Source: Octopus vulgaris
Taxonomy: Eukaryota
DNA: 64,000 bases
Direction: 5' to 3'
Assembly: GCA_951406725.2 (NCBI GenBank)
Contig: OX597841.1
Coordinates: forward strand, 496,001-560,000
Shown: positions 9,191-48,025 of the stretch, one piece after another
Layout: each line of letters starts with the position of its first letter
Position numbering within the stretch: the stretch's first letter is position 1
Position numbers and translations under genes: made by a program
Notes under the pieces: generated by a model
What the model saw: the letters and a program-made list of their open reading frames with translations, nothing else
Database searches by the model: none
What the model was told of the DNA's origin: nothing

Positions 9191-9237
9191 CTACCTCAGG
9201 CGGATGAATATGGCCATGAAGTCTGCTAATGCATAAC
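9191..9237 (-). CDS. Gene copy A, terminal coding exon 5
   Basis: ttgcag|GT TAT GCA...CTG AGG TAG; encodes (G)YALADFMAIFIRLR*. AATAAA lies downstream on the minus strand at 9082-9077. Confidence 0.85.
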
Positions 9238-9503
9238 CTGCAAGTAACAATAACAACATCAATAACAAAAGGAATTCAAATATATCGTGGGAGGACTTTA
9301 TAGGTGGTCACTCGAATTACTAGAAATGGCAGCCCAATCTCTGCATCGTTTTGTGGGTCGGTCACTGTTGGAACGCCTTTGAATATAAATCAGTTGAATC
9401 AAGGCTGATTGGCCGCTAAACAATAAGTACAAAATTAACTTTTAGTACTACTACTCACAGTAAGACAAACGCACACAAACACAGAAGATACAATATCACT
9501 TAC

Positions 9504-9664
9504 CGTTGTTCCATACGACTTTCGATTTTGTATCAGAATAACGAATTAAAGGGTAGTATTCTGAATTTTCGTACTGACAGTCAAGTGGTCCCTCATTGAT
9601 GGTCAACCAGCCTCTGTCCCCGTCACAATTACCATGTATTGTTATATAGAAGCGACGATTAAAC
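9504..9664 (-). CDS. Gene copy A, coding exon 4 (not in ORF track)
   Basis: ttctaactccttag|G TTT AAT CGT...AAC AAC G|GTAAGT; 161 nt, phase 2->1. Encodes (K)FNRRFYITIHGNCDGDRGWLTINEGPLDCQYENSEYYPLIRYSDTKSKVVWNN. Confidence 0.87.
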
Positions 9665-10654
9665 CTAAGGAGTTAGAAAAAGAAAAAAAAAACTTGTTTG
9701 GGTTTCAGAATATGAAAATCTAAACTTCTAGAAAACATACCATTATGTCTGCTATATGCAGTTAAATACAATCAGAATTTAATTAAAATAGACATCTGTG
9801 TATCATACTTAATGTATAAACACACTCGCGATAGACTATTCACTGAAGTATTTTTCCTGAAATAGCATGTATTATGGATTTGCTGTCTATCGGATAGACA
9901 CCGAAATTCGTTCCAGCAGCGGCCAGTGAGAGCAAAAGATGTTATTTCAGGACACACATATTGCAGTAACTGCCCTGTCGAGAGTGTATATACGTTATGT
10001 ATGCTACATAGATGTTAGAATGTGCAGTGGCAGCCCACAGGCCCGTCTATAGATTCCATTTCAAATGAGATCTATCTTACACCAAATATGAGTTCGTAAG
10101 CACTCACATACATATAAACGACATATATACAGAAATACAGACATACGCAAACGCACACTCACAGGCAGACACATATGCACACACATACATACACACACGC
10201 GCGCGCGCAGATTTGTGCAAAAGTGAAAATGTAAGGAAAGGCAAAAGTACACACGAGGCATATAATTTAGCAAAAAATCTACAAAACGCTCGAACATATA
10301 AACGATAATATTTTCCCGTGTTGAACATCTTAGCAAAGCGCCAAGTGAAATAAATATAATAGAATGTAATAATACTTAAAAGGAACAGAGACAAGTAAAT
10401 ATAATAATAGTATTCATTTTAAGGTGAATGTATATTTTCGTGTTTCGCACTTTAAAACATGCCTTTTGACGCGAAAGCCAGGAAACGACACAATTGGTGA
10501 AGAGAAAGCACGTGTGGTGTTGAAAATACAAAAATGTATGAGTAAGAGATAAAGAGTCTCTAGCAGCGGCAGTGGGGTTGCTAAATCAGTATTTCTGTTT
10601 TTGTTTTTTTTAATATCGGCGCAGGTGTGGTTGTGTGGTAAGTAGCTTGTTTAC

Positions 10655-12910
10655 AGGTTGCTTCTGCGCATGTGCGAGTCAGTGTTGTGTTTGGCACTGA
10701 AGCGGTGAAGACGTGCTTTTGAAGCCGTCTTGAATTGAAAATTTTTGAAGCCCCATTGTAAGGTAAGATTCTGTTTTCTGGGTCCAGTGGAAATTTTTGT
10801 TGAAAATTGTTTTTTACAGGCAGGAAGTCCTACTGGATTCAGAATTCTGATTCTGCCGACATGGGGCAAATATATTTTTCTCGCTGAATTGTGAGAATTT
10901 GGGTGGGGGGCGTATTCGTCTTCGATAATTGAGTGAATATTTTTCTCACCTAATTATGAGAATTGTATTGTGCTGTGAAGAAATTTAAGAATTGTGAGAA
11001 CTGTTATATAGGGGAGTGTTTTGCCTCCGAAGTTTGAACAATTTTTACCAATTTTACACCAATTTTTGTGGAAGTTGTGTTCCAGTTGCGGCGTTCCGGG
11101 TTCAATTTAGGCCGGGAGTACCAAATGGCCAGAAGATTTTTTGCTGTGTTATTGACTTTCTTTTGAACTTTATTTGACTTTCTCCTTTTTTGTTTATTGT
11201 GACTTTCTTCTGATTTCTTTTTCTTCTCGCTTTTTAAGTTTTATTTTGAATATATTTAAAAAAAGAAGAAAAAAAAACATGGCAATGAAAAATGACAAAA
11301 TTTTGGAATGGGAGATCATACCGCCTAAAAAGTAGTAAAAAGACCGTGAAGATAGGACGGTGGTGTGGAGAACCTACTCCAAGGCACTCGACACCATCGC
11401 CCTGTTCGAAAAGACGACAATTGAAAAGGAGTTGGCAGAGTATTTGCCAACAATTAAATTCATTTCCAGGGGTGTCAAATATGCAACGGTGTGGTTGCTA
11501 TTTGACACCCCTGAAGAGGCTTGCAAATTTGCTAGTAAACCCCTGGAGGGTAAGGAAATGTTATTCCTGCCCACGTAGCAAAAAAAGAGACTGACGAAAG
11601 CTTGGATTTGCGGGCTGCCACCCGGGATAGAACCCGAGAGGATAGAGGCGACTATCCGCCGGGGTCTGGGTAGCAGCGAAACTAAGCTCCTTAATGTAAA
11701 AGTTCTTCCTGCGGCTGCTTGGTTTGGGTCAAAAGCAATTTTGACCCTTGGACCCAATCAGCCAATTTGGCTCTTCCACATTTTTTGAAAATGGGCGGGT
11801 GCAGGTACCCGGTGATGCTTGAGGGTCGCCTCCCTAAGTGTCATCGGTGCTTGGAGTCCGGCCATATGAAGAAGAACTGTCCCCGGGAACAAAATAGGAT
11901 CCCGGAACAGTTAAGTGAAACCCCTGTAGAATAGGGAATGATAACGGCCGAGGAAGCAGAGGACTCCACAAACAGAGGCCGAAGAGGAAGGTGAGCAACA
12001 ATGGGTGCTCACCAAAGGATACTAGGGATGAGGAGGGAAAGGCGAATCTTCCGGCTACGGAGGAGACGCACCCTCCCGCAGTTGAAAAGAAAAAATGAAG
12101 AAGAGGAAGAGAAACGGGACATTACCGGTTGTCGGTGACATAGTACCGGAATGTCCCGGAACTACGTCGGTTGGGGTTGTGCCACCGACAGGAGAAGAAA
12201 CACCGTTGGCGGGAACTGTGCCGCCAACGAAAGAATTGAATATCCCGCACCCGAGCAAAAACGATGTATTGATACTCTTCCATAGCGGCGGAGAGATTGA
12301 AAAGGTGATGGAAAAGCACCACAAGGGAGCACCTTTAGCCTTCACACAGGACCCCGAATGGCCTCCGCAGGTAGCTGTGGAGGCCGTGGCGTTCGACGTG
12401 ACGCTTGGGCTGAAGGAGCTCAATGAGGATTATAGCTTGGTTCCGGGCGACGCTAACTCGGAACTCGATTACATTCTGAGGGAGGCGTGGTGGATGGTGG
12501 AGGATGCGGGCACAAGTTATTTTGAGGACGAGTCATAAATTGTGATACGACTTGAGGGCCCCGACCTACAGCTGGCGCATTCCTAAGGGAAGTGTAAGCC
12601 AGGTCTGGGAGGTGGGGCTTTGTCTATTGTATTTATATCATATGTAATTATTGAACCATATTGTTGTTAGTAATGGACTGTTAAGTCCAAAAATTGAAAA
12701 GTTGTAAAAATTGTAAGAGGTTTAATACCTCGTTTTGTGTTTGTTTTTAAAAGAACAATGTTTTAGAGAAGCAGAAGTCGGCGGGCGCTTCTTGTCTTCT
12801 CACATCCCCATCATCCTTCTTTCATTATCATTCATTTCATTAATGTCCTCGTCCAGCCCGCAAAGCTAACTTACTCTATGTACTGCCTTAATGGCAAATG
12901 TTATGAAATA
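10655..12910 (+). mobile_element. ORF1-only (HAL1-like) L1/Tx1-related retroelement, degenerate
   Basis: 15-bp TSD AAGTAGCTTGTTTAC (10640-10654 / 12911-12925); ends in AATAAA. Disrupted gag-like ORF at about 11279-12538 with CCHC knuckle CHRCLESGHMKKNC; no RT or endonuclease. Empty site in copy B at about 46550. Confidence 0.75.
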
Positions 12911-13564
12911 AAGTAGCTTGTTTACCAGCCACTTGGTTCAGGGTTCAGTCCCACTGTGTGGCACTTTGGACAAGTGTCTTCTACTATAACCTCGAACCGA
13001 CCAGTTTATGTGCTTGTGTTTCTCCCCTAGCATTGCTTGACAACCGATGCTGGTGTGTTTATGTCCCCGCTACTTAGCTGTTCGGCAAAAGAGACCGATA
13101 GAATAAGTACTGGGCTTACAAAAGAATAAGTCCCGGGGTCGAGTTGCTCGATTAAAGGCGGTCCTCCAGCATGGCCGCAGTCAAGTGACTGAAACAAGTA
13201 AAAGAGTAAAGAGTAAAGAGTAAAATAGCTTTTGGCATCCACATGCCAAGTATAATTTAATCTCGACTGATACAGAAAAATAGTTCTCAACAAATCACCT
13301 GTGCTGCAGTATCCAGAAGGCTCGATAGATTTCAATGTTAGCGACGGAAGCTATATTTGCTCCCATTTGAATTCTGTATATGATAATAAATGAAGATATA
13401 ATGTTGAAAGCCTGAAAATGCGTTGTTCGTCTTCAGAACGTTTCGCGCTTCAATGTATAGCGTTGAAATATATGAGAAACAAACGAAAAGTGATTTTAAA
13501 TCTATAAGTCTCTACATAACAAGACAATCTCTACGTCACAAGAAAAGAAAATATATTAACATAC

Positions 13565-13728
13565 TTGTGTCCCTTAATTGAGAATTCAAGTTCGGTGGCT
13601 GAAGCCAGGTCGTTCCATGGTGAACTTTTCAAGTTTTTATGAGAGAACCAGCTTTCAATGGTTGTATTTCGTCCATTAAATATCATAGTTACCACATTTG
13701 TTTGGTTTTTGCTAATCACTAGTTTCAC
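13565..13728 (-). CDS. Gene copy A, coding exon 3
   Basis: ttgcag|GTG AAA...GGA CAC AA|GTATGT; 164 nt, phase 0->2. Encodes VKLVISKNQTNVVTMIFNGRNTTIESWFSHKNLKSSPWNDLASATELEFSIKGH, with N-glycosylation sequons NQT and NTT. Confidence 0.88.
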
Positions 13729-14612
13729 CTGCAAAAGAAATGAACATGTAGACACGTAAAACCGCTAAAGTGACGGGGACATAAACACACCAGCATCGGT
13801 TGTCAAGCAATGCTAGGGGGACAAACACAGACACACAAACACACACATATATATATATATACATATATACGACAGGCTTCTTTCAGTTTCCGTCTACCAA
13901 ATCCACTCACAAGGCATTGGTCGGCACTGGGCTATAGCAGAAGACACTTGCCCAAGATGCCATGCAGTGGGACTGAAACCGGAACCATGTGGCTGGTAAG
14001 TAAGCTACTTACCACACAGCCACTCCTGCGCCACACGTTAGCACTCGCATAATGAAAATAATTGGATCAAGTTAAAGAGATCGAGATACTTTAAAATATA
14101 TTTCTTTAGTTGTTAGTCTAATTTCCACTCATTTTTATTACATCCTTCCTTTGAGACCATCGAGTCTGTATAACCCGCGAAATTAACGATTTTTATTTGT
14201 CACTCACCTAATTGGTATCTTACCATCCATAAATGTATCAAATAATATATATTTAATTACCCTTCGCTTGGAAATTTCCTTTGGTAATGTTATGAAAACA
14301 CAGGATCTCATAGTGTTCCATTCCAAGCTGCATGACGCAATGTGGTAACAATAACAAAATTCTGCTACTAAAACACACCTCCTAATACACAAATAATCCA
14401 TGCGTTTTTAGCCCCATTACACGCACATTGTATGTGTTTTTGCGTCTGTGTATGTGTGTGTGTATTTCACTCACACCACTTGACAAATGGTTTCCTTGTG
14501 TTGATGTCCACCGTAATATAGCGGTTCGTCCAAAGAAATAGATAGAATATATACAAGAGTATTAGTTCTACTAAACCCATGGCCGGAGTCCAATGACTGA
14601 AGCAGGCAACAT

Positions 14613-14690
<78 letters not shown>

Positions 14691-14867
14691 AGAGTTTACG
14701 AAAAAACAAAAGACGAAGACAGGTGGCGTACAAAACAAACAGATGTATTAGTATAACGCTCAGGAATAGAAAAAAGTCATTTATGTTTCGAGCCTACGCT
14801 CTTCTACAGAAAGGGACACAGAAAAAACAAAGAGAGAAGAAAATGTGTGTAGCGGCTAACGATCTAT

Positions 14868-15002
<135 letters not shown>

Positions 15003-15986
15003 GGCTGCTAGATCAATCATTGTCTGCTAAATAGAGTTGATACAATTAATGAAAACTAATGCTTCTACCCACCAAAATGTGTAGCAATCTATCCATGAGA
15101 GAAAATATTGAAACGTTAAGTTTAGTTGTCAGATATATAGGAGAAAAACACACGATATGTCTTCTTCATTTCCTTAACTCCATGTAGAGTACAGGACACC
15201 AGTAACAGATCGCTATAGGCTGGTAAATTTGGCAATGAATTGCAGTTATCCCCAGGTCTTGCCATCAACCATTTCTTCAGTTTCTGTTGAGCTTTTCCAT
15301 GTTTTATTTAATCTGTCACGCTTCTGCCTTCCTTGCGATATTCATCGGATGGCTTGCCTTGTAAAATCAGAAAGAGGTTTCCGTTCGATGTGTCCTAGCT
15401 AACCTCATTCCTTGCTCCTGATCTGAGATCCCGTAGGTTACTGGCTCACATGTTCCCACAAGATTTTGTTTGTTACTCAATTTTGCCACCCCACAAGAAG
15501 AACAAGATTATTCAAATTTGAGATCAAGTCCCACCCAGGTCCCCCAGCTTTACTTTATGCTGGGTTCAATAAAACTTTGACCATTCATGTATCGTAAGTT
15601 GATTTCATCGATTTTGTTTCTCATTTACTGACCACTCCCCCAAAGGGGAGTCTTTTGTCTATGATAATTATTATTATTACTGCGGTTTGTCATGGATAAA
15701 AATTCTTACCACCTTCTACGTGGATCATAGTCCCCCGTCTGTTGCTCGGTGTTCCCGTCTACGCCTATAAGTTTAATTCTAAACCTAATTATAAATAGCT
15801 CTGCCTGAGTATAGTCTTCTTATATATATGGGTGTATGTATATGTACTGCTGTGTGTATATGTGTGCGCATATACCTGAATTTGTTTCTTTTTCATGTAT
15901 ACTTGACCAAAGTCTGTTAATCATTATTACTATCATTATGAAAATAATGGTACTGTATGAACTTGCTCGCACGTATGAATACATAC

Positions 15987-16165
15987 CTCATCAATTGGAA
16001 GATAGTTCCAGAAATCAAGGAGAGGGTGTCGGAAGAAGTTAGGACAAAAGTCATTTCTGCATTCGTCCATATTCCAGGATGAAGGATGTCCTATATTCAG
16101 AAATGAATTATAAACTTTTGAACCAGCTCCCTTTGACATGGTATAGGTTTTAATCCATTGGCTAT
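15987..16165 (-). CDS. Gene copy A, coding exon 2
   Basis: tttcag|AT AGC CAA TGG...GAT GAG|GTATGT; 179 nt, phase 1->0. Encodes (Y)SQWIKTYTMSKGAGSKVYNSFLNIGHPSSWNMDECRNDFCPNFFRHPLLDFWNYLPIDE, in frame with exon 1. Confidence 0.88.
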
Positions 16166-16172
16166 CTGAAAT

Positions 16173-16227
<55 letters not shown>

Positions 16228-16675
16228 TTAATAATAATAATTCTTTTATTCTTTTATTTGTTGTAGTCATTTTACTGTGGCTGTGCTGGAGCAACACATT
16301 TTGTCGAGCAAATCAACCCCAAGACGTATTCTTTGTAAGCCTAGTACTTATTCTATCGGTCTTTCTTGCGCATTGAAGTTGGGGGGACAAATACAGACAC
16401 ACAAACATTATACATATCCATCCATCCATACATACATACATACATACATACATACATACATACGTACACACACAAACACACACATACACACACACACACA
16501 CATATATATATGACTGGCTTCTGTCACTTTCCGTCTACCAAATCCACTCCCAAGGCTTTGGTCGGCTCGAGGTTATAGTAGAAAACACCTGCCCAAGTTG
16601 CCACGCTATGGGGACGGCATCAAGAACTATGTGCTTGGTAAGCAAGCTACTTACCACACATCTAATGATAATAAT

Positions 16676-16731
<56 letters not shown>

Positions 16732-16732
16732 C

Positions 16733-16764
<32 letters not shown>

Positions 16765-17233
16765 TGGACTACAGCAAAGATTCTGCTCAATACCACAGAT
16801 TTGCTTGTCAGTTGTTTGACCGTAACCAGTTGAGCATGTCCCGTAGTGGCTGACGATATGTGCATCTCTGATCACGTGTAGAAGTAGTGGGGGAGCATCA
16901 TAGCCATGTGTTGAGAGGGGTCTTTGGGGTTTGAACAATTCACCTCTGTTTCATTCAACATCCTTAAACAACCCTTAATCAGGGACCTTTTGAGTGGGAT
17001 GGGTTACCCAACCAGAAGAAAATTCTAACTGGGCCCCTCTTGCAAGGTCATGCACTGTTTATCTTGATATGAGATTCCCATGTTGCGAACAATTGGTTGT
17101 GATGCATATGCCTAGTGTACCCTCATCAGACGGTTAGTCATGATGGGTATACTGAACTTCGTATATTTGTACCCAAGTGTCACTTTGATGGCATGCACTG
17201 CTCTCTCACTCAATAGTAATAATAATAATAATA

Positions 17234-17320
<87 letters not shown>

Positions 17321-17527
17321 TAATAAGGTTTAAAACAAACTTTTTTATTATTATTTTTATTTTTTTTATTTTTTAATTTTTATGTATTAGACATCACTAG
17401 TACAACACAAAAAAAAAAAAAACCCCCCCCAAATATATGGCACAGAACATCCAACCTGTTGTCTCTTGAGGTCTCTGGGTGAGACTTGAAACCAACTTGT
17501 ACAGAGATAAAGCAAAAGTCAAACATA

Positions 17528-17600
<73 letters not shown>

Positions 17601-17601
<1 letters not shown>

Positions 17602-18155
17602 GCCCTGATGCAGTACCAGGCAGTGGCTCTCATGGCTTCTGATCTTAATTGATTCGAAGTGTCATCACGTACATTGTTTTGTCTTGGTATAAAAGATGGG
17701 CTACAGCAAATATTCTGCTCAGTACCACAGATTTGCTTGTCAGTTGTTTGACCGTAACCAGTTGAGCATGTCCCTTAGTAGCTAACGATATGTGCAACAC
17801 TGATCACGAGCTGAAGTAGTGGGGGAGCATCATAGCCATGTGTTGAGAGGGATTCTTTGGGGTTTGAATAATTCACCTCTGGACACATGGGTGGTTCTTT
17901 CAGCATCCTTAAACAACCCTTATTCAGGGACCTTTGAGCGGGATGGGCTACTCAACCTGAAGAAAATTCTAACTGGGCCCCACCTGCAAGGTCATGTGCT
18001 GTTTATTTTGATATGAGATCACCATGTCGCACACATATAGTTGTGATGCATGTGCCTGATGTACCCTTATCAGACGGGTAGTCATGATGGGTATACTGGG
18101 CTTCGTATATTTGTACCCCAGTGTCACTTTGATGGCATGCACTGCTCTCTCACTC
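17601..18155 (+). mobile_element. About 555-bp non-coding element inserted in (AAT)n; other copies at 16763-17211 (+, truncated), 37788-38343, 40946-41501 and 41602-42063 (-)
   Basis: Five similar copies TGCCCTGATGCAGTACC...GCTCTCTCACTC, each bounded on both sides by AAT repeats. Confidence 0.8.
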
Positions 18156-18156
18156 A

Positions 18157-18242
<86 letters not shown>

Positions 18243-19949: not shown

Positions 19950-20247
19950 ATCTATAGAAGGCAATCTCGTTGCTGTCACTCGTGCTGACGACTGTCATTA
20001 TATCTTTCGGTGAGTAATTCTTACAAACACGGCTGACATCGTTGTAAGTAAAGAATTCTGATTGGCTGTTTAGAGCATAGAAGGCACATTCCGGTAGACT
20101 TTCTCTCTTATAGAATTTTTCCGATGGATTCGTCTGAAGGTATCCATAAGAGTAACCAGGAGGCAAACGTTTGTAGTAAGCATCATGAAATTCCTGAGCA
20201 AAGGCAACCGCCAGAATTATTGTCAATGTTAACAGCTGCACTGACAT
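19950..20247 (-). CDS. Gene copy A, coding exon 1: signal peptide + PAN/apple-like Cys domain of a secreted protein (282 aa total)
   Basis: MSVQLLTLTIILAVAFA|QEFHDAYY...ECAFYALNSQSEFFTYNDVSRVCKNY...FYR. Hydrophobic signal-like N-terminus. Acceptor ctctttcag| opens the exon at 20330 (5'UTR part); phase-1 donor T|GTAAGT follows 19950. An in-frame upstream ATG is at 20280. The paralog at 35559-35856 keeps frame and splice sites. Confidence 0.9.
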
Positions 20248-20922
20248 TGCAGCTGGACAAGTAAAAGGGAACTGGGACATTCTTGGCCCTAATATCAATG
20301 GGAAATGTTTAAGAGTAAGGCGGAGTAATCCTGAAAGAGAAGAGGAAGATAATTTGAGAAGATGGAAAATGTTTGCGTGTAAGAGGAAACGCTAAATGAA
20401 TAAATTACAATTTAGAAGAGAAAAAATAAAATAAATTAAGGTGATTCCTAAAGGCATAGGTCCTGGGTATGATTTTAAACTGCATCCAGCAGTGATCCCT
20501 GGTTGGGGATTTCTAGTGTTTTGACGAATTTTGGAACCAGCTCTTAGCCACCGCTGTCCCAAGATCAAGTCTGACCCGGAGTAGTAGTGGTCGTCAAGGT
20601 TCTAATTATGGATTAATTAGTAATTCCTTCGACCGGATGGAACTCATCATCCAGGTGGTAGTGAGACAACCCTTCTAGAAGACGGAAAACGCTGATTCCA
20701 AACCCACGATAACTTGCAACAATATTCAATCATGGGAAAGTGTTCGGGTGAAAATACTCGGGTAAAATTGAGAATCAGAGACAAAGGGGCAGTTCGATGC
20801 TGTCTTCAACCTCACCCCTGCAAATCCTGTGTCGATGCTGTTAACAAATTGTAGGGTTCCTTTCTGTTCGTTTAGACCTGTTAATGAGATTGAGATGATG
20901 GACACACTACATGGGCAACAAC

Positions 20923-21154: not shown

Positions 21155-21424
21155 CTACATGGGCAACAACCTGTCCTCCGTACCACACTGCTCTGGTTGG
21201 GGTCATATCGAATACATTATACTAGAAATATAGAACCGGATATCACACCGGTGATGAACATAACAATTCAATCAACACAGCCTGAAAATGCAGATACGTG
21301 GCAGAGACTGCCATTTGCACAGAGTACTGTTCAGAGACAGACAACGATGGTCTGATAGAGCAGGAAGTTACGGGCATCATACATGGACATTAACGAGGAA
21401 CTGAGATGCAGGCTTTGCCTTTCG

Positions 21425-21489
<65 letters not shown>

Positions 21490-21660: not shown

Positions 21661-21726
<66 letters not shown>

Positions 21727-29457: not shown

Positions 29458-32215
29458 AAAATAGTAAAGTGTGAAAAAACGACAGAAGGCTTAAATGTTA
29501 AAAAATATATATATTTGTGTCAAAATGTCTGGAGAATATTGGAAAAATTTTTTCCTTTCCTTAAAATGACATACTTTTAAAATTTTTAAAGAAATTACCG
29601 GTTTCGCGCGTAGCTTTTCAAATTTCTTGGGACGTTATGTTTATATTGCATGGAGTTATCGTTGTGTTTATTAACAGGAGATTTCTAAATAAGGGGAGGT
29701 AGTGAGTGATTTCTTCCGGTGTAAGGGAGATAATCGCTTAAAAATTTTTTTCCCTTTTCCTTGTTAATTTCTCTGTGTCAGTATGTTCGGATGGTTGAGT
29801 CTGGGTTTGTACTTTTCAATGAAGAATGTTTCCTTGTTCAGTCTCATTTGTGTTGATGATCCGAAAGCACATTGGTAAAATGGGAAGATTAAAAATTGTG
29901 GCAGTATTTGCTTTGCGCATTTCTCAATGTGCTCACTAAAAGGTATCATTCTATATTCTGGGAATGCAATCTGTTGTCGATGCAGTGTGCATCTACGCCT
30001 GAGTGATAGTCCCGTTGAACCCACGTAGTCTTGGTGGCAGCCCGAGCATTTAATTACATAAATTATGTTTTCAGAGGCACAAGTAAAGTTAGATTTGATC
30101 TTGAATTTCTGTCCCTCCTTAAAGAAGAATTCTGATCCTTCCAATAGGTTAGGACATGTTGCACAGTTCGATCTACCACATTTTTTTACTTTTGCATCCG
30201 TAATTTTAGAGGACAATTTTGCCTTTGTGAGAATCTTTTTAAGTGATTTAGGCTGTTTGTAGCTTTTAATGATTTGGTGTATGTTTAGAATTTCCTTTAA
30301 TTTTGGGTTTTTTTGAAGTATTGGTAAATTCTGGGTGATGATGGTGAAGGCTTCTTTGTTTCTGGGGTTGTATGTAGTTATATGTAAGGTAGTATTTTCG
30401 GGGAAGGTGTGTTGTTGTGTTGAACTTTTCTTAAAGTTTCTATGTTGATTTCTGTTGCACGTCTGATCCCATCTTCTATGAGTTGAGCTGGGTAATGTCT
30501 ATCAATTAGGGTGTTTTTGAGTTCTTGCAGTCTAAAGTTCCTGGTATTTTGTTCTGACACTATTGTGCATATCCTTCTTGCAAGGTTGAAGGGGATGTTT
30601 GTTTTAGTGTGTCTTGGGTGGCATGAATTAAAAGAAGGTATTGTTTGGCGTCTGTGGCTTTGTAAAAAATGTCTGTTTCTATTTTAAGGTTAATTTTTTT
30701 AATTAGTATATCCAAGAACGGGAGCTCCTTTTGGTTGTATTCCATTGTGAACTGTATATTTGGGTTTATGCTGTTCAATAGGTTTTTAAATTTTAGGAGT
30801 TTACCTATGTTTTCATTCCAGAGAATGAAACAATCGTCTAGGAATCGTTTCCAATTCTCTTTTATGTATTGAGAGAGGGAGTTTCCAAAGATTGATAGAG
30901 ATTCCTGGAAAATGATTATTTCCATGTATCCCATTGTTAAGTTCGCAATGACTGGTGCTGCCCTTGTACCCATAGCAATTCCGGATTTTTGACGGTAAAA
31001 TGTATTGTCAAACATGAAGTGGTTATTGTGTAGGATGAATTCAATTGATTTAGTAATGAATTCCTTACTGATCCTTTTTGGTATTTCTTCCGGAAATTGG
31101 TCTAACCAGAACTGTATTGCCTCCAGTCCATAATTATGAGGTATACTGGTATACAAGTTGACTACATCAAATGAAACCAGGATTGTTTCTTCCTTGGTTT
31201 TTTTTGGAAGGTGGTTTAACATATCTAAGTCATCTCTGATATGGCTATCGATATGTTTAAGGAAGGGTTTCAGGAGGATATCCATAAGTAGACTTAGTCT
31301 GTGTGTTTCACAGGTTGGGCCAGCTACAATGGGTCGTAGTTTTAGGTCCCCCGGATTAGGTGTGTGTATGTATGTCTTTGGTGATTTTTTAATGGTTTCA
31401 TTTATAATTTGACTTTTATGAATTTTTGGCAGACCATAGAAAAGGCTAGGTTTGCATTTAAAGTTTGTTAGGAAATCAATCTCTTTGGTTGTCAGTTCCT
31501 TTTCATGGGTTTTAATTAGTGAAGATAGAGTTTTTCACCAAAGACATACTTGTGCCTCTGAAAACATAATTTATGTTATTAAATGCTCGGGCTGCCACCA
31601 AGACTACGTGGGTTCAACGGGACTATCACTCAGGCGTAGATGCACACTGCATCGACAACAGATTGCATTCCCAGAATATAGAATGATATCTTTTAGTGAG
31701 CACATTGAGAAATGCGCAAAGCAAATACTGCCACAATTTTTAATCTTCCCATTTTACCAATGTGCTTTCGGATCATCAACACAAATGAGACTGAACAAGG
31801 AAACATTCTTCATTGAAAAGTACAAACCCAGACTCAACCATCCGAACATACTGACACAGAGAAATTAACAAGGAAAAGGGAAAAAAAAATTTTAAGCGAT
31901 TGTCTCCCTTACACCGGAAGAAATCACTCACTACCTCCCCTTATTTAGAAATCTCCTGTTAATAAACACAACGATAACTCCATGCAATATAAACATAACG
32001 TCACAAGAAATTTGAAAAGCTACACGCGAAACCGGTAATTTCTTTAAAAATTTTAAAATTATGTCATTTTAAGGAAAGGAAAAAAATTTTCCAATATTCT
32101 CCAGACATTTTGACACAAATATATATATTTTTTAACATTTAAGCCTTCTGTCGTTTTTTCACACTTTACTATTTTCTTATATATTCACCCACGTGCTTTA
32201 CCAAACAAACTTTCT
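29453..32215 (-). mobile_element. Penelope-like element (probably Neptune-type), 5'-truncated, with inverted copy of its 3' end
   Basis: RT motifs SFDVVNLYTSI, QKSGIAMGT, WKRFLDD, LPFLD (31.5->30.56 kb, frameshifted). Linker CGRSNCATC and GIY-YIG NIIYVIKC..DYVGST (30216-29764). Inverted arms 29453-30084 / 31548-32180. Inserted in (TA)n and absent from copy A. Confidence 0.9.
32005..32044 (+). ncRNA. Minimal variant hammerhead motif in Penelope pLTR (inverted copy 29589-29628, minus)
   Basis: AAGAAAT-TTGAAAA-GCtacacGC-GAAA-CCGG-TA-ATTTCTT: perfect 7-bp stem I, C3U/G8A core variant, palindromic stem III. Confidence 0.55.
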
Positions 32216-34361: not shown

Positions 34362-35558
34362 CGAAAGGCTGAGCCTGCATCTCAGTTCCTAATTAATGAC
34401 CATGTATGAAGCCCGTAACTTCCTGCCCTATCAGACCATCGTTGTCTGTCTCTGAACAGTACTCTGTGCAAATGGCAGTCTCTGCCACGTATCTGCATTT
34501 TCAGGCTGTGTTGTTCGAATTGTTATGTTCTTCTTCACCGGTGTGATATCCGGTTCTATATTTCTAGTATAATGTATTCGATATGACCCCAACCAGAGCC
34601 GTATGGTACGGAGGACAGGTTGTTGCCCATGTAGGGCGTCGAGCTGGCAGAATCGTTAGCACGCCGGGCGAAATGCGTAGCCGTATTTCGTCAGCCGTTA
34701 CGTTCTGAGTTCAAATTCCGCCGAGGTCAACTTAGCCTTTTATCCTTTCGGGGTCGATTAAATAAGTACCAGTTACGCACTGGGATCGATATAATCGATT
34801 TAATCCGTTTGTCTGTTCTTGTTTGTCCTCCCTGTGTTTAGCCCCTTGTGGGCAATAAAGAAATAGGTTGTTGCCCATGTAGTGTGTCCCTCATCTCAAT
34901 CTCATTAACAGGTCTAAAAGAAGGAAAGGAACCTTACAATTTGTTAACAGCATCGACACAGGATTTGCAGGGGTGAGGTTGAAGACAGCATCGAACTGCC
35001 CCTTTGTCTCTGATTCTCAATTTTACCCCAGTATTTTCACCCGAACACTTTCCCATGATTGAATATTGTTGCAAGTTATCGGGGGTTTGGAATCAGAGTT
35101 TTCCATCTTCTAGAAGGGTTGTCTCACTACCACCTGGATGATGAGCTCCATGCGATCGAAGGAATTACTAATTAATCCATAATTAGAACCTTGACGACCA
35201 CTACTACTCCGGGTCAGACTAGATCTTGGGACAGCGGTGGCTAAGAGCTGGTTCAAAAACTCGTCAAAACACTAGAAATCCCCAACCAGGGATCACTGCT
35301 GGATACAGTTTAAAATCATACCCAGGACCTATGCCTTTTGGAATCACCTTAATTTATTTTATTTTTTCTCTTCTAAATTGTAATTTATTCGTTTAGCGAT
35401 TTCTTTTACAAACATTCTTCCTCTTACACGCAAACATTTTCCATCTTCTCAAATTATCTTCCTCTTCTCTTTCAGGATTACTCCGCCTTACTCTTAAACA
35501 TTTCCCATTGATATTAGGGCCAAGAATGTCCCAGTTCCCTTTTACTTGTCCAGCTGCA

Positions 35559-35856
35559 ATGGCAGTGCAGCTGTTAACATTTACAATAATTCTGGCGGTT
35601 GCCTTTGCTCAGGAATTTTATGATGCTTACTACGAACGTTTGCCTCCTGGTTACTCTTATGGATACCTTCAGACGAATCCATCGGAAAAATTCTATAAGA
35701 GAGAAAGTCTACTGGAATGTACTGGCATCGCTCTACAGAGCCAATCAGAATTCTTTACTTACAACGAAGTCAGCCGTGTTTGTAAGAATTACTCACCGAA
35801 AGATATAATGACAGTCGTCAGCACGAGTGACAGCAACGAGATTGCCTTCTATAGAT
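35559..35856 (+). CDS. Gene copy B, coding exon 1 (signal peptide + PAN/apple-like domain; 285 aa total)
   Basis: MAVQLLTFTIILAVAFAQEFYDAYYER...ECTGIALQSQSEFFTYNEVSRVCKNY...FYR. Acceptor ttcag| opens the exon at 35476; donor T|GTAAGT at 35857. Confidence 0.9.
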
Positions 35857-36008: not shown

Positions 36009-36059
<51 letters not shown>

Positions 36060-37616: not shown

Positions 37617-37700
<84 letters not shown>

Positions 37701-37709
37701 TTATTATTA

Positions 37710-37768
<59 letters not shown>

Positions 37769-38361
37769 CATTATTATTTTTATTATTGTGTGAGAGAGCA
37801 GTGCATGCCATCAAAGTGACACTGGGGTACAAATATACGAAGCCCAGTATACCCATCATGACTACCCGTCTGATAAGGGTACACCAGGCACCTGCATCAC
37901 AACCATATGTGCGCGACATGGTGATCTCATATCAAGAAAAACAGCACATGACCTTGCAGGTGGGGCCCAGTTAGAATTTTCTTCAGGTTGAGTAGCCCAT
38001 CCCGCTCAAAAGGTCCCTGAATAAGGGTTGTTTAAGGATGTTGAAAGAACCACCCATGTTTCCCGAGGTGAATTATTCAAACCCCAAATAATCCCACTCA
38101 AAACATGGCTATGATGCTCCCCCACTACTTCTGCTCGTGATCAGAGATGCACATATCGTTAGCCACTAAGGGACATGCTCAAATGGTTAAGGTCAAACAA
38201 CTGACAAGCAAATCTGTGGTATTGAGCAGAATATTTGCTGTAGCCATGTTTTATACCAAGACAAAACAATGTACATAATAACACTTCCAATCAATTAAGA
38301 TCAGAAGCCATAAGAGCCACTGTCTGGTACTGCATCAGGGCATTTATTATTATTATTATTA

Positions 38362-38430
<69 letters not shown>

Positions 38431-38440
38431 TTATTATTAT

Positions 38441-39506
38441 TCTATGTTTGACTTTTGCTTTATGTCTGTACAAGTTGGCTCCAAGTCTCACCCAGAGACC
38501 TCAAGAGACAACAGGTTAGAAGTTCTGTGCCATATATTTGGGGTGTTTTTTCTTTTTTTTTCTGGTGTTGTACTAGTGAATGTCTAATACATAAAAAAAA
38601 ATAAATAAATAAATAAAAAAATAAATTAAAGAAATAAAAAAAAAGTTTGTTTTAAACCTTGGGATTACATAGAGAGTATTTTGCGTAGGATATGAGCAGT
38701 TCCTATGAGCACTATCTTTTGAATTTCTGCCATTTTGGGGTTTCCTGGTATCTGAGTTAGGTAGCAATCAGTCGCTTTCGCTATCATTCCCAGGGCACCT
38801 ATGACAACAGGTATTGTTTTAGTCTTCAGCTTCCACATTTTGCTGATTTCTATTTCAAGATATTTATATTTGCTCAGTTTTTGGTAGGTCTTGACAGATA
38901 CGTTTATATCGATTGGGACAGTCATATCAATGAGGAGGCATGTTCTTTTTCTGAAGCCTTTCAATATAAAGTCTGGCCTATTTGCATCTATCTTCCTGTC
39001 AGTTTGAATGGTGAAGTTCCAGAGGAGTGAGATGTGGTCATTTTCAAGCACAGGAGGTGGATTGTGTTCCCACCAGATTTTTTTCATGGGGCAAATCCAG
39101 GTTTTTGCAAATTACCCAGTGAATATATTGTGCAGCTCTATCATGCCTACTGAGGTACTCTGTAGGCGCTAGAAGATTGCATTTGGAGACAACATGGTCA
39201 ATGGTTTCATTTTGTTGTCGGCATACACGACATGTTGGGCTATTGCCGTTCTTTAATATGTTGGCCTGGTAGTTTCTTGTTGGTAGGCATTGATCTTGAG
39301 CTGCTATGATAAACCCCTCTGTTTCAGATTTTAAGCCAGAGGCCATTAGCCAGGGTATTTGCCATAGAGAGGTTTTTCTTGCCATTTATTATTCAGAATA
39401 TCTAAGGCCGCAGTTTTGGCACGGGTTTTCATGTGCCTAGCTTTTTCTGTGCTTGTTTCTTGTATATCTATCTCTAATTCCGAAATTGGTTGTATTCGGA
39501 ATTCAC
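38441..39506 (-). mobile_element. Dong/R4-clade LINE 3' fragment (CCHC + restriction-like endonuclease + 3'UTR) in (TAA)n
   Basis: CRVC..ETIDHVVSKC..RHD, IQTDRKIDANRPD, LIDMTVP, PVVIGALG, QKIVLIGTAHILRKIL; frameshifted and flanked by TAA repeats. A 3'UTR-only piece is present in copy A at about 17328-17530. Confidence 0.85.
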
Positions 39507-40945
<1,439 letters not shown>

Positions 40946-41510
40946 GAGTGAGAGAGCAGTTCATGCCATCAAAGTGACACTGGGGTAAAATATACGAAGC
41001 CCAATATACCCATCATGACTACCCGTCTGATAAAGGTACACCAGGCACATGCATCACAACCATATGTGCGCGACATGGTGATCTCATATCAAGATAAACA
41101 GCACATGACCTTGCAGGTGGGGCCCAGTTAGAATTTTCTTCAGGTTGAGTAGCCCATCCTGCTCTAACGGTCCCTGAATAAGGGTTGCTTTAGGATGTTG
41201 AACGAAACACCTATGTTTCCAGAGGTGAACCATTCAAACTCCAAAGAATCCCTCTCAACACATGGCCATGATGCTCCCCCACTACTTCTGCTCGTGATCA
41301 GAGATGCACATATCGTCAGCCACTAAGGGACATGCTCAACTGGTTAAGGTCAAACAACTGACAAGCAAATCTGTGGTATTGAGCAGAATATTTGCTGTAG
41401 CCCATCTTTTATACCAAGACAAAACAATGTACATGATAACACTTCCAATCAGTTAAGATCAGAAGCCATGAGAGCCACTGCCTGGTACTGCATCAGGGCA
41501 TTTATTATTA

Positions 41511-41573
<63 letters not shown>

Positions 41574-42084
41574 TATTATTATTATTATTACTACTACTAC
41601 TGAGTGAGAGAGCAGTGCATGCCATCAAAGTGACACTGGGGTACAAATATACGAAGCCCAGTATACCCATGATGGGTATAACCGTCTGATAACGGTACAC
41701 TAGGCACATGCATCACAACCAAATGTTCGCAACATGGGAATCTCATATCAAGATAAACAGTGCATGACCTTGCAAGAGGGGCCCAGTTAGAATTTTCTTC
41801 TGGTTGGGTAACCCATCCCACTCAAAAGGTCCCTGATTAAGGGTTATTTAAGGATGTTGAATGAAACACCCAAGTTTTCAGAGGTGAATCATTCAAACCC
41901 CAAAGAATCCCACTCAACACATGGCTATGATGCTCCCCCACTACTTCTACTCGTGATCAGAGATGCACATATCGTCAGCCACTACGGGACATGCTCAACT
42001 GGTTACGGTCAAACACCTGACAAGCAAATCTGTGGTATTGAGCAGAATATTTGCTGTAGTCCGTTATTATTATTATTATTATTT

Positions 42085-42196
<112 letters not shown>

Positions 42197-42352
42197 CATT
42201 GGATGTGTGGTAAGTGTCTTGCTTACCAAGCACATAGTTCTTGGTGCCGTCCCCATAGCGTGGCAACTTGGGCAAGTGTCTTCTTCTATAACCTCGAGCC
42301 GACCAAAGCCTTGGGATTGGATTTGGTAGACGGAAAGTGACAGAAGCCAGTC

Positions 42353-42384
<32 letters not shown>

Positions 42385-42627
42385 TTGTGTGCGTATGTAT
42401 GTATGTATGTATGTATGTATGTATGTATGTATGTATGTATGGATGGATGGATGGATATGTATAATGTTTGTGTGTCTGTATTTGTCCCCCCAACTTCAAT
42501 GCGCAAGACAGACCGATAGAATAAGTACTAGGCTTACAAAGAATACGTCTTGGGGTTGATTTGTTCGACAAAAGGTGTTGCTCCAGCACAGCCGCAGTAA
42601 TATGACTAAAACAAATAAAAGAATAAA

Positions 42628-42708
<81 letters not shown>

Positions 42709-42733
42709 TTTATCATTATTATTAATATTTCAG

Positions 42734-42912
42734 ATAGCCAATGGATTAAAACCTATACCATATCAAAGGGAGCTGGTTCAAAAGTTTATAATTCATTTCT
42801 GAATATAGGACATCCTTCATCCTGGAATATGGACGAATGCAGAAATAACTTTTGTCCTAACTTCTTCCGACACCCTCTCCTTGATTTCTGGAACTATCTT
42901 CCAATTGATGAG
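42734..42912 (+). CDS. Gene copy B, coding exon 2
   Basis: tttcag|ATAGCC...GATGAG|GTATGT; 179 nt; 2 nt differences from A (M/I, D/N). Confidence 0.88.
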
Positions 42913-43896
42913 GTATGTATTCATACGTGCGAGGAAGTTCATACAGTATCATTGTTTTCATAATGATAGTAATAATGATTAACAGACTTTGGTCAAGTAT
43001 ACATGAATAAGAAACAAATTCAGGTATATGCGCACACATATACACACAGCAGTACATATACATACAACCATATATATAAGAAGACTATACTCACGCAGAG
43101 CTATTTATAATTAGGTTTAGAATTGAACTTATAGGCGTAGACGGGAACACCGAGCAACAGACGGCGGACTATGATCCACGTAGAAGGTGGTAAGAATTTT
43201 TATCCGTGACAAACCGCAGTAATAATAATAATTATCATAGACAAAAGACTCCCCTTTGGGGAAGTGGTCAGTAAATGGGAAACAAAATCGATGAAATCAA
43301 CTTACGATACATGAATGGTCAAAGTTTTATTGAACCCAGCATAAAGTAAAGCTGGGGGACCTGGGTGGGACTTGATCTCAAATTTGAATAATCTTGTTCT
43401 TCTTGTGGGGTGGCAAAATTGAGTAACAAACAAAATCTTGTGGGAACATGTGAGCCAGTAACCTACGGGATCTCAGATCAGGAGCAAGGAATGAGGTTAG
43501 CTAGGACACATCGAGCGGAAACCTCTTTCTGATTTTACAAGGCAAGCCATCCGATGAATATCGCAAGGAAGGCAGAAGCGTGACAGATAAAATAAAACAT
43601 GGAAAAGCTCAACAGAAACTGAAGAAATGGTTGATGGCAAGACCTGGGGATAACTGCAATTCATTGCCAAATTTACCAGCCTATAGCGATCTGTTACTGG
43701 TGTCCTGTACTCTACATGGAGTTAAGGAAATGAAGAAGACATATCGTGTTTTTCTCTTATATATCTGACAACTAAACTTAACGTTTCGATATTTTCTCTC
43801 ATGGATAGATGGCTACACATTTTGGTGGTTAGAAGCATTAGTTTTCATTAATTCTATTAACTCTATTTAGCAGACAATGATTGATCTAGCAGCCAT

Positions 43897-43934
<38 letters not shown>

Positions 43935-44112
43935 AACAGATCGTTAGCCGCTACACTCATTTTCTTCTCTCTTTGTTTTTTCTGTGTCCCTTTCTGTAGA
44001 AGAGCGTAGTCTCGAAACGTAAAAGACTATTTTCTATTCCTGAGCGTTATACTAATACATCTGTTTGTTTTGTACGCCACCGGTCTTCGTCTTTTGTTTT
44101 TTCGTAAACTCT

Positions 44113-44253
<141 letters not shown>

Positions 44254-45287
44254 TATATGTTGCCTGCTTCTGTCATTGGACTACGGCCATGGGTTTAGTA
44301 GAACTAATACTCTTGTATATATTCTATCAATTTCTTTGGACGAACCGCTATGTTACGGGGGACATCAACACAAGGAAACCATTTGTCAAGTGGTAGGAGT
44401 GAAATACACACACACATACACAGACGTAAATACACATACGATGTGCGTGTAATGGGGCTAAAAACGCATGGATTATTTGTGTATTACGAGGTGTATTTTA
44501 GTAGCAGAATTTTGTTATTGTTACCACATTTCGTCATGCAGCTTGGAATGGAACACTATGAGATCCTGTGTTTTCATAACATTACCAAAGGAAATTTCCA
44601 AGCGAAGGGTAATTAAATATATATTATTTGATACATTTATGGATGGTAAGATACTTATTAGGTGAGTGACAAATAAAAATCGTTAATTTGCAGGTTATAC
44701 AGATTCGATTTGCTCAAAGGAAGGATGTAATAAAAATGAGTGGAAATTAGACTAACAACTAAAGAAATATATTTTAAAGTATCTCGATCTCTTTAACTTG
44801 ATCCAATTATTTTTCATTATGCGAGTGCTAACGTGTGGGGCAGGGGGCTGTGTGGTAAGTAGCTTGCTTACCAACCACATGGTTCCGGGTTCAGTCCCAC
44901 TGCGTGGCATCTTGGACAAGTGTCTTCTGCTATAGCCCCGGGCCGACCAATGTCTTGTGAGTGGATTTGGTAGACGGAAACTGAAAGAAGCCTGTCGTAT
45001 ATATGTATATATATATATATATGTGTGTGTGTGTTTGTGTGTCTGTGTTTGTCCCCCTAGCATTGCTGGTGTGTTCGGCAAATGAGACCGATAGAATAAG
45101 TACTGGGCTTACAAAGAAATTAGTCCCGGGTCGAGTTGCTCGACTAAAGGCGGTGCGACAGCATGGCCGCAGTCTACTGACTGAAACAAGTAAAAGAGTA
45201 AAAAAAGAGAGAGAGAGAGAGAGAGAGAGTGCGTATATGTATGCATGTGCATGTGTGTACGTGTCTACATGTTCATTTCTATTGCAG

Positions 45288-45451
45288 GTGAAACTAGTGA
45301 TTAGCAAAAACCAAACCGATGTGGTAACTATGATATTTAATGGACGAAATACAACCATTGAAAGCTGGTTCTCTCGGAAAAACTTGAAAAGTTCACCATG
45401 GAACGACCTGGCTTCAGCCACCGGACTTGAATTCTCAATTAAGGGATTCGA
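45288..45451 (+). CDS. Gene copy B, coding exon 3
   Basis: ttgcag|GTGAAA...TTC GA|GTATGT; 164 nt. Encodes VKLVISKNQTDVVTMIFNGRNTTIESWFSRKNLKSSPWNDLASATGLEFSIKGF. Confidence 0.88.
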
Positions 45452-45764
45452 GTATGTTTATATATTTTCTTTTCTTGTGACGTAGAGATTGTCTTGTTAT
45501 GTAGAGACTTATAGATTTAAAATCACTTTTCGTTTGTCTCTCATATATTTCAACGCTAAACATTTAAACGCGAAACGTTCTGAAGACGAACAACGCATTT
45601 TCAGGCTTTCAAAATTATATCTTCATTTATTATCATATACAGAATTCAAATGCGAGCAAATATAGATTCCTTCGCTAAAATTGAAATCTATCGAGCCTTC
45701 TGGATACTGCAGCACAGGTGATTTGTTGAGAACAATTTTTCTCTATCAGTCGAGATTAAATAAT

Positions 45765-46153
45765 GGATGGAAGCACTCCGTCGGTTACGACGACGAGGGT
45801 TCCGGTTGATCCGAATCAACAGAACAGCCTGCTGGTGAAATTAACGTGTAAGTGGCTGAGCACTCCACAGACGCGTGTACCCATAACGTAGTTCTCGGGG
45901 ATATTCAGCGTGACGCAGAGAGTGACAAGGCCGGCCCTTTGAAATATAGGTACAACAGAAACAGGAAGTAAGAGTGTGAGAAAGTTGTGGTGAAAGAGTA
46001 CAGCAGGGATCACCACCATCCCCTGCCGGAGCCTCGTGGAGCTTTTGGTGTTTTCGCTCAATAAACACTCACAACGCCCGGTCTGGGAATCGAAACCGCA
46101 ATCCTATGACCGCGAGTCCGCTGCCCTAACCACTGGGCAATTGCGCCTCCAAT
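45765..46153 (-). mobile_element. tRNA-derived SINE, copy-B-specific (same family as 26716-27099)
   Basis: 13-bp TSD GAGATTAAATAAT (45752-45764 / 46154-46166); A/B boxes; absent from copy A at about 13255. Confidence 0.85.
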
Positions 46154-47542
46154 GAGATTAAATAATACTTGGCATGTGGATGCCAAACGCTATTTACTCT
46201 TTACTCTTTACTCTTTTACTTGTTTCAGTCATTTGACTGCGGCCATGCTGGAGGACCGCTTTTAATCGAGCAACTCGACCCCGGGATTTAATCTTTTGTA
46301 AGCCCAGTACTTATTCTATCGGTCTCTTTTGCCGAACCGCTAAGTAACGGGGACATAAACACACCAGCATCGGTTGTCAAGCAATGCTAGGGGACAAACA
46401 CAGACACACAAACACACACACGCATATATATATATATACATATATACGACAGGCTTCTCTCAGTTTCCGTCTACCAAATCCACTTTCAAGGCTTTGGTCG
46501 GCCCGAGGCTATAGTAGAAAACACTTGCCATAGGTGCCATGTGGTTGGTACACAAGCTACTTACCACACAGCCACACCTGCGCCGATATTTTTTAAAAAG
46601 ACACAGAAATACTGATTAAGCAACCCCACTGCCGCTGCTAGAGACTCTTTATCTCTTACTAATACATTTCTGTATTTTCAACACCACACGTCTAAATGAT
46701 ATGCTTTCTCTTCACCAATTGTGTCGTTTCCTGGCTTTCGCGTCAAAAGGCATGTTTTAAAGTGCGAAACACGAAAATATACATTCACCTTAAAATGAAT
46801 ACTATTATTAAATTTATTTGTCTCTGTTCCTCTTAAGTATTATTACATTCTATTATATTTATTTCACTTGGCGCTTTGCTAAGATGTTCAACACGGGAAA
46901 ATATTATCGTTTATATGTTCGAGCGTTTTGTAGATTTTTTGCTAAATTGTATGCCTCGTGTGTACTTTTGCCTTTCCTTACATTTTCACATTTGCACAAA
47001 TCTGCGCGCGCGTGTGTGTGTATGTGTGTGTGTGCATATGTGTATGCCTGTGAGTGTGCGTTTGCGTATGTCTGTATTTCTGTATATATGTCGTTTATAT
47101 GTATGTGAGTGCTTACGAACGCATCTTTGGTGTAAGATAGATCTCACTTGAAATGGAATCTATAGACGGGCCTGTGGGCTGCCACTGCACATTCTTACAT
47201 ATATGTAGCATACATAACGTATATACACTCTCGACAGGCCAGTTACTGCAATATTTGTGTCCTGAAATAACATCTTTTGCTCTCACTGGCCGCTGCTGGA
47301 AGGAATTTCGGTGTCTATCCGATAGACAGCAAATCCATAATACATGCTATTTCAGGAAAAATACTTCAGTAATTAGTCTATCGAGAGTGTGTATATACAT
47401 TAAGTATGATACACAGATGTCTATTTTAATTAAATTCTGATTGATCTAACTGCATATAGCAGACATAATGGTATGTTTACTAGAAATTTAGATTTTCATA
47501 TTCTGAAACCCAAACAAGTTTTTTCTTTTTCTAACTCCTTAG

Positions 47543-47703
47543 TCTTAGACGTCGCTTCTATATAACAATAAATATTGTTTGTGAAGGGGACAGAGGCTGG
47601 TTGGCCATCATTGAGGCGCCAGGTAGCTGTCAGTGGGAAAACTCAGATCACTACCCTTCAATTCGTTATTCTGATACAAAATCGAAAGTCATATGGAACA
47701 ACG
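47543..47703 (+). CDS. Gene copy B, coding exon 4
   Basis: ccttag|T CTT AGA CGT...AAC G|GTAAGT; 161 nt. Encodes (D)LRRRFYITINIVCEGDRGWLAIIEAPGSCQWENSDHYPSIRYSDTKSKVIWNN. Confidence 0.87.
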
Positions 47704-47969
47704 GTAAGTGATATTGTATCTTCTGTGTTTGTGTGCGTTTGTCTTACTGTGAGTAGTAGTACTAAAAGTTAATTTTGTACTTATTGTTTAGCGGCCAATC
47801 TGTCTTGATTCAACTGATTTATATTCAAAGGCGTTCCAACAGTGACCGACTCACAAAACGATGCAGAGATTCGGCTGCCATTTCTAGTAATTCGAGTGAT
47901 CACGTATAAAGTACTCCCACGATATATTTCAATACCTTTGGTTGTTAATGTTGTTGTTGTTACTTGCAG

Positions 47970-48025
47970 GTTATGGATTAGCAGACTCCATGGCCATATT
48001 CATCCGCCTGAGGCAGCAGAACTAA
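47970..48025 (+). CDS. Gene copy B, terminal coding exon 5
   Basis: ttgcag|GT TAT GGA...AGG CAG CAG AAC TAA; encodes (G)YGLADSMAIFIRLRQQN*. AATAAA at about 48125-48130. Confidence 0.85.

Follow-up and report, generated by a model that had tools for sequence, protein, structure and literature searches.

Why would one coding exon of two closely related genes differ more than the intron beside it? The question is raised by a 64,000-nucleotide stretch of the Octopus vulgaris genome (assembly GCA_951406725.2, contig OX597841.1, positions 496,001 to 560,000; G000:C28:496001-560000 in our coordinates), referred to below as the window, from whose start all gene and exon positions are counted. The window holds two paralogs, gene A on the minus strand and gene B on the plus strand, which an earlier, sequence-only reading had taken for members of a hidden and expanding family of secreted proteins whose young copies are under diversifying selection. 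Diversifying selection in this octopod family is well supported by our analysis and is concentrated at residues 214–258 of the product, where one loop patch evolves about three times faster than neutral DNA.

Divergence of genes A and B

Genes A and B are arranged back to back, with five coding exons each, open frames and GT-AG boundaries in all eight introns, which agrees with the exon structure first proposed. Exons 1–4 are of the same length in both genes (331/179/164/161 nt), as had been claimed for all exons; exon 5 is unequal, with the stop of A three codons before that of B, and the products have 293 and 296 residues, respectively. From exon 1 to exon 5, the two genes differ at 15/331, 2/179, 8/164, 25/161 and 3/47 positions, compared with 13/266 in intron 4 and 1.7–5.4% in other intron and flank samples. 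The earlier counts for exon 2, exon 4 and intron 4 were all reproduced, and so were its 35 amino-acid changes and two silent-only codons.

The divergence of exon 4 exceeds that of intron 4 (Fisher p = 2e-4). For the whole coding sequence, the ratio of replacement to silent divergence (dN/dS) calculated by the NG86 method is 2.5 (p = 0.03); for exon 4 alone the proportion of replacement differences (pN) is 0.178 versus 0.057 for silent ones (pS), giving a dN/dS of 3.4 (p = 0.06). Taken by itself the pair is suggestive, being modest evidence for dN>dS, and a firm test needs the family. The RRFYI and GDRGW motifs, which had been regarded as invariant, are indeed so within the A–B pair but not beyond it: GDRGW itself varies across the family, where D239, G240 and R242 are among the selected sites.

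Diversifying selection in the family

Codon site models were fitted by our own code (F3x4, with an IQ-TREE tree and branch lengths for each exon, a single free scale, and site calls by empirical instead of full Bayes). From the 40 exon-4 copies, two containing stops and one that was a duplicate were left out, so that 37 copies and 53 codons were analysed. Model M0 gave an omega (dN/dS) of 1.03 for these copies, whereas M8 places 28% of the sites at an omega of 3.2, the likelihood-ratio test (LRT) statistics being 79.9 for M8 versus M8a, 86.8 for M8 versus M7 and 102.4 for M2a versus M1a. With the 13 youngest copies, the M0 omega is 1.70 and the LRT 27.8. The corresponding LRTs are 55.6 for exon 3 (35 copies), 13.7 for exon 2 (34 copies) and 24.6 for the mature part of exon 1 (32 copies). 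The expectation that dN/dS is above 1 thus holds across a larger paralog set.

Twenty of the 24 sites in the C-terminal domain (C-domain) with posterior above 0.9 are located at residues 214–258, where they form three runs flanking Cys238 and Cys254, and 21 of the 24 lie outside strands. The core Trp, Cys and Pro columns are fixed across copies. Selected sites had been predicted to cluster in exon 4 and in a patch of exon 1. The first part was borne out, with the zone starting already in the last third of exon 3, while the exon-1 patch is likely to be a copied tract, as described below.

A model-free check was made on 12 disjoint young pairs, picked by intron likeness alone. The introns of these pairs differ at 121/4094 sites (3.0%) and exon 4 at 13.3/427.6 silent sites (3.1%) and 130.7/1477.4 replacement sites (8.8%; p = 1e-5), and with each codon counted once the contrast is 99 versus 9 (p = 9e-5). 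Between species, the closest Octopus sinensis proteins are also least alike in exon 4 (100/98/100/90% and 99/97/94/87%, exon 4 being the last value).

Exchange between copies

The paralogs exchange sequence as mosaics. Among 25 genes, 22 of the 300 pairs share identical runs above a global permutation threshold, some of which may be conserved blocks, and in a set of 32 genes every exon's data reject the trees built from the three others. Gene A shares an exact run of 61 nt with the paralog g360, whose exon 1 otherwise differs at 61/331 sites (18%). Since 10 of the 15 A–B differences in exon 1 fall inside this run, the exon-1 patch was most likely copied in one event.

The same sequence-only reading had pointed out that exon 4 might itself be one old conversion tract. 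This candidate was rejected because the silent sites of exon 4 track the introns (3.1 versus 3.0%) instead of being elevated, and because no long donor tract was found for the B-side changes: across the 40 copies of the cluster and the further loci retrieved, outside which donors may exist, the B-specific exon-4 alleles match non-sister copies for at most 14 nt. When conversion was simulated without omega >1, the LRT reached up to 18.3 in 10 runs and was significant in one of them; the LRTs observed for exons 4 and 3 are far above this maximum.

The tandem array

Genes A and B are part of an array located at the beginning of G000:C28. A genome search with exon 4 gave 56 matches among 66 candidates, 53 of them on C28 and 38 within its first megabase, and a search with exon 2 gave 66 matches among 72 candidates, of which 65 are on C28 and two overlap. 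The family size is therefore roughly 55–65 copies. Reading of 860 kb (C28 1–810 kb and 850–900 kb, with four exon boundaries re-chosen by hand) revealed 46 gene or fragment units on both strands. Thirty-three have five exons, and 27 of these possess an open frame (one with a shifted last exon) whereas six contain stops. The proposed expansion is accordingly present on C28, where it forms a tandem multigene array shaped by birth and death.

Gene A belongs to a set of three tandem units of ~20 kb which are 97–99% identical (G000:C28:457000-518000, including window positions 1–22000). In the middle unit, exon 1 is interrupted by a stop and exon 3 ends differently. Assembly duplication was considered for these three units and rejected, given that they are ~1.2% apart and one carries a stop. 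The first gene of the array is truncated and lies 413 bases from the contig start (G000:C28:413-591); the array may be subtelomeric and run past the end of the assembly. Orphan exons and partial genes are found at G000:C28:570252-578663, 594379-594539, 107145-107627, 730462-732853 and 80613-80776, including a B-like copy without exon 2, and could be donors for conversion.

Splicing of family members

Of the 24 listed sequencing runs, none of them recorded as RNA, five were mapped, four of these on the exon 4–5 stretch. One contig omits exactly the 266-nt GT..AG intron 4, with 56 letters on its shorter side, and loose ends join exon 4 to exon 5 in three further runs. The end of exon 3 is joined to exon 4 in one contig. 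Spliced forms, which the earlier reading had called for, were thus found at the exon 3–4 and 4–5 joints of family members.

Domains and fold of the product

The product is predicted to be secreted, with one hydrophobic stretch at about residues 10–31 followed by three Cys pairs and three N-glycosylation sequons, all read without a dedicated predictor; a Cys238–Cys254 disulfide is predicted. Structure prediction was applied to P0026, a relative from O. sinensis, in place of A and B. Residues 34–112 of this model match the PAN/apple fold, with a Z score of 10.1 and a root-mean-square deviation (RMSD) of 2.3 Å for 76 residues aligned to the N-domain of HGF, and 19 of the top 20 structural matches align to about residues 31–115. 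The Pfam cut-off for PAN was not reached by sequence (PAN_3, 16.5 and 14.3 bits versus 21.1).

The C-domain is modelled confidently, its predicted local distance difference test score (pLDDT) being 93.8, and it has 1,091 relatives at E ≤ 0.001. Neither a TLD nor an Ig match was found in Pfam, and PDB sequence searches gave nothing significant. In Foldseek the template-modelling (TM) scores to fibrinogen-like folds are 0.34–0.40, none at E ≤ 0.001. Superposition with ficolin, intelectin and fibrinogen domains runs end to end, giving Z scores of 4.0–5.0 and RMSDs of 4.2–5.3 Å for 118–149 aligned residues. These C-domain scores come from re-examination of the top 1000 Foldseek matches, so folds that Foldseek missed may remain; the exhaustive VIA search covered the two-domain model. 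The alignments start at the GGWT strand, ahead of which fibrinogen domains carry an N-terminal A subdomain, and the PAN domain stands where that subdomain would be. A bacterial-looking relative of 887 residues, P0099, has two copies of the C-domain, each directly behind a fibrinogen N-terminal subdomain, and among the Atlas clusters that have a Pfam family the nearest are fibrinogen, collagen-C or PAN ones, at scores below 0.9. Because of this fusion and these clusters, a remote relationship between the C-domain and fibrinogen domains is favoured. The Atlas also lists related clusters from Myxococcota and phages.

In ficolins the ligand site is situated in the distal C-terminal subdomain, and by colinearity with them residues 214–258 would be in the distal subdomain too. 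Distant relatives of the C-domain, as scanned in 46 of the 150 listed matches, are fused to C-type lectin, F5/8, SUEL, WSC, sushi, EGF, TSP1 and ZP modules; the C-domain also occurs in an adhesion G-protein-coupled receptor (GPCR) and beside adhesion or matrix domains.

Relatives and earlier description

The close relatives are uncharacterised RefSeq/GenBank proteins of Octopus and Argonauta. O. sinensis LOC118768575-81 and others, and O. bimaculoides LOC106872447 (‘Apple domain-containing’), belong to the same family, with the same length and motifs, and are present in RefSeq and UniRef, where they are known from automatic annotation only. The family is thus hidden in the sense of being undescribed, but not in the sense of being absent from databases. 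Aplysia, Mytilus and Potamilus share its two-domain layout, and the C-domain is also present in Pomacea and Ptychodera. In a tree of 49 sequences the octopod ones form one clade (100/97), though the outgroup branches are long. Accordingly, the idea of a cephalopod expansion stands for the close expansion, seen only in octopods, whereas the architecture is pan-molluscan.

The public O. vulgaris-labelled models P0007 and P0011, which cover A and B, are chimeric. Together with P0008 and P0009 they fuse neighbour genes and leave out exons, and in some of them exon 5 is translated in a different frame. The O. sinensis protein P0032 and G000:C28:25592-33901 have a common front half (exons 1–2, 96–100% identical) and a different back half, which reflects either a swap of domains between close species or an error in the gene models.

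No description of the family was found in the literature as covered by titles and abstract openings, outside of which subscription papers and most supplements could hold expression data; within that scope the family is probably uncharacterised, as had been supposed. The LOC identifiers were found neither in main texts nor in the readable supplements of PMC9712504, and four terms sought in PMC12607849 were absent. Six family motifs were absent from the supplements of a skin-mucus proteome (PMC10138644) and of a salivary-gland proteome (PMC7693380), but this negative is weak, since the search databases of both may lack the proteins and long files may be incomplete.

What the family may do

The reading that we prefer, with a probability of about 0.5, is that these are soluble recognition proteins for non-self targets, for example microbial or parasite surfaces. 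New copies would be made by duplication and inversion; unequal crossing-over and conversion would reshuffle exons and short tracts and keep the introns alike; and selection would retain new loop variants. The loops at 214–258 would form a variable binding surface whose ligand is foreign. With a PAN/apple-fold domain and an uncatalogued domain joined in one likely secreted product, the protein would serve in soluble pattern recognition, working like a ficolin or a snail fibrinogen-related protein (FREP) while being a member of neither group. Invertebrate recognition loci typically consist of large sets of paralogs that have diversified through unequal crossover and conversion (PMC13712769), and the secreted FREP families of molluscs are diversified via duplication and allelic variation (PMC13428168).

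Several points weigh against this interpretation. Four of the 12 young pairs include a pseudogene, and excluding them leaves 59 versus 7 (p = 0.011). The differences are clustered, 35 of the 99 changed codons having multiple changes, so short templated or multi-base events contribute; once differences at most 5 nt apart are merged, the exon-over-intron excess is only 3.3% versus 2.4% (p = 0.03). One of the ten conversion-only simulations was a false positive (LRT 18), which covers the exon-2 signal (13.7) and approaches that of exon 1 (24.6). The spliced contigs, whose RNA origin is presumed, differ from B by several letters, so splicing is shown for family members rather than for A or B specifically. 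As to the fold, there is no Pfam family for the C-domain and no Fibrinogen_C match at E ≤ 1 among six exon peptides and 15 full relatives; Foldseek gave no match at E ≤ 0.001 for either the two-domain or the C-domain model; and the fibrinogen Z scores of 4–5 are tied with those of TLDc (Z 5.3–5.8, RMSD 3.7–3.9 Å, 116–120 aligned). Finally, the same pattern of evolution is known from reproductive and salivary proteins.

The alternative that survives best, though we regard it as improbable, sees the family as an accessory of saliva or venom, or as secreted by skin or suckers, with diverse prey or substrate molecules as its ligands. The predicted secretion, the disulfides, the duplication in tandem and the excess of exon over intron divergence all have parallels in known venom gene families, and PAN-like folds occur in leech salivary proteins (1i8n, 2k13). 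However, no likeness to named toxins was found in Pfam, PDB sequence or fold searches, and the architecture is common to bivalves and Aplysia.

Next comes the same secreted binding family acting in reproduction, in sperm–egg, spermatophore or egg-coat recognition, where sexual selection or conflict would drive the loops. This unlikely reading predicts the same selection signature, with exon 4 most different between the closest proteins of two octopus species, and one of the distant relatives carries a fused ZP domain; but the roughly 55–65 diverging copies, frequent pseudogenes and shuffling would fit recognition of many targets better than that of one gamete partner. Less probable again is another extracellular binding role with the same diversifying loops, such as adhesion, matrix, chemosensory carriage or microbiome management. 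In its favour, the C-domain is a module of general extracellular use, present in an adhesion GPCR and next to adhesion and matrix domains, yet strong and focused diversifying selection among young copies would be unusual for structural proteins.

That there is no selection at all, short tracts from older paralogs speeding exon 4 in a relaxed and decaying array with homogenised introns, is very unlikely and for exon 4 largely refuted: conversion is real, as significant runs, discordant exon trees and the exon-1 tract attest, the differences are clustered and 6 of 33 five-exon units have stops, but old tracts would raise silent sites (exon-4 silent sites equal introns, p = 0.88), any sampled non-sister copy shares no more than those 14 nt of B-specific alleles, the simulated LRT is 18 versus 80 observed, and the core columns are fixed.

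Coordinates and neighbouring sequence

Table 1. Positions of the parts of genes A and B in the window.
Feature	Position	Strand	Remarks
Gene A exon 1	19950..20280	-	Predicted signal peptide (hydrophobic ~residues 10-31) and PAN/apple-fold domain; weak PAN_3 match
Gene A 61-nt stretch within exon 1	20041..20101	-	Same as in distant paralog g360; likely conversion tract containing the exon-1 patch
Gene A exon 2	15987..16165	-	C-terminal domain begins; most conserved exon
Gene A exon 3	13565..13728	-	Last 35 nt (residues 214-225) within the selected zone
Gene A exon 4	9504..9664	-	Hypervariable; contains Cys238 and Cys254
Gene A intron 4	9238..9503	-	266 nt; 13 differences from B
Gene A exon 5, coding part	9191..9237	-	Phe at 285; stop three codons before that of B
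Gene B exon 1	35526..35856	+	Predicted signal peptide, PAN/apple-fold domain
Gene B exon 2	42734..42912	+	179 nt
Gene B exon 3	45288..45451	+	Exon 3-4 joint present in a family contig
Gene B exon 4	47543..47703	+	Hypervariable
Gene B intron 4	47704..47969	+	266 nt; spliced out in contigs of family members
Gene B exon 5, coding part	47970..48025	+	Stop three codons after that of A

The S285F change was considered as a sure sign of decay in A and rejected, as Phe is also there in the distant relative P0071. Intron 3 of A has an insertion of ~2.2 kb (10655-12910), absent from B and probably a mobile-element remnant, with a 150-residue open frame at 12086-12538; short interspersed nuclear element (SINE) repeats also occur in intron 3. 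In intron 1 of B, a 480-copy ATT microsatellite adjoins a fragment resembling a long interspersed nuclear element (LINE) (39507-40945 and 38665-39385). The 3′ flank of gene B occurs a second time at 54829-55788, where no exons adjoin it. The open frames at 29764-31534, 49485-51038, 53064-54767 and 61410-62487 resemble, by eye, pieces of reverse transcriptase and GIY-YIG nuclease, and may be parts of Penelope-like elements.

Comparison with known systems

The fibrinogen-domain lectins, namely ficolins, intelectins and FGL1 (PF00147), resemble the octopus family in the end-to-end alignment from the first strand to the C-terminus, in the fibrinogen N-subdomain that lies ahead of the C-domain in a relative, and in the location of the octopus variable loops in the distal half of the domain. 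Unlike them, the octopus family is without a Pfam match, reaches a Z of only 4–5, has a PAN-fold in place of the N-subdomain and possesses no collagen or coiled-coil stalk. The FREPs of gastropods and bivalves are alike in being molluscan secreted families diversified by duplication; they combine an immunoglobulin superfamily (IgSF) region with a canonical fibrinogen domain (PMC13712769) and diversify somatically, whereas the octopus family has no Ig domain and the diversity shown in it is germline. The PAN/apple domains of the HGF N-domain, plasminogen, TgMIC4 and SML-2 have a similar fold, of which the octopus proteins keep only one Cys pair (65, 86).

The peptide-binding exons of the major histocompatibility complex (MHC), sea-urchin SpTransformer and the conotoxins are hypervariable-exon families which share with the octopus array its birth and death, its exon-over-intron divergence and its short-tract conversion combined with selection; the proteins themselves are unrelated. 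To our knowledge, few diversified recognition molecules are known in cephalopods, and this family is a concrete candidate with mapped variable loops, in which near-identical paralog pairs differing mainly in the loops let specificity be tested directly. We suggest only tentatively, as a possibility that is more doubtful than the recognition role itself, that the octopus relies on this array as its chief repertoire of soluble, germline-diversified recognition proteins, in which a PAN domain is combined with an uncatalogued, fibrinogen-derived lectin domain whose three variable loops are shuffled among copies and selected against parasites and microbes, and that it is a cephalopod counterpart of the snail FREPs on a new binding domain. 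The work also defines a widespread extracellular domain without a Pfam family or a close solved structure. The evolutionary mechanism is familiar from the systems above; what is new is the undescribed octopod family and its uncatalogued domain.

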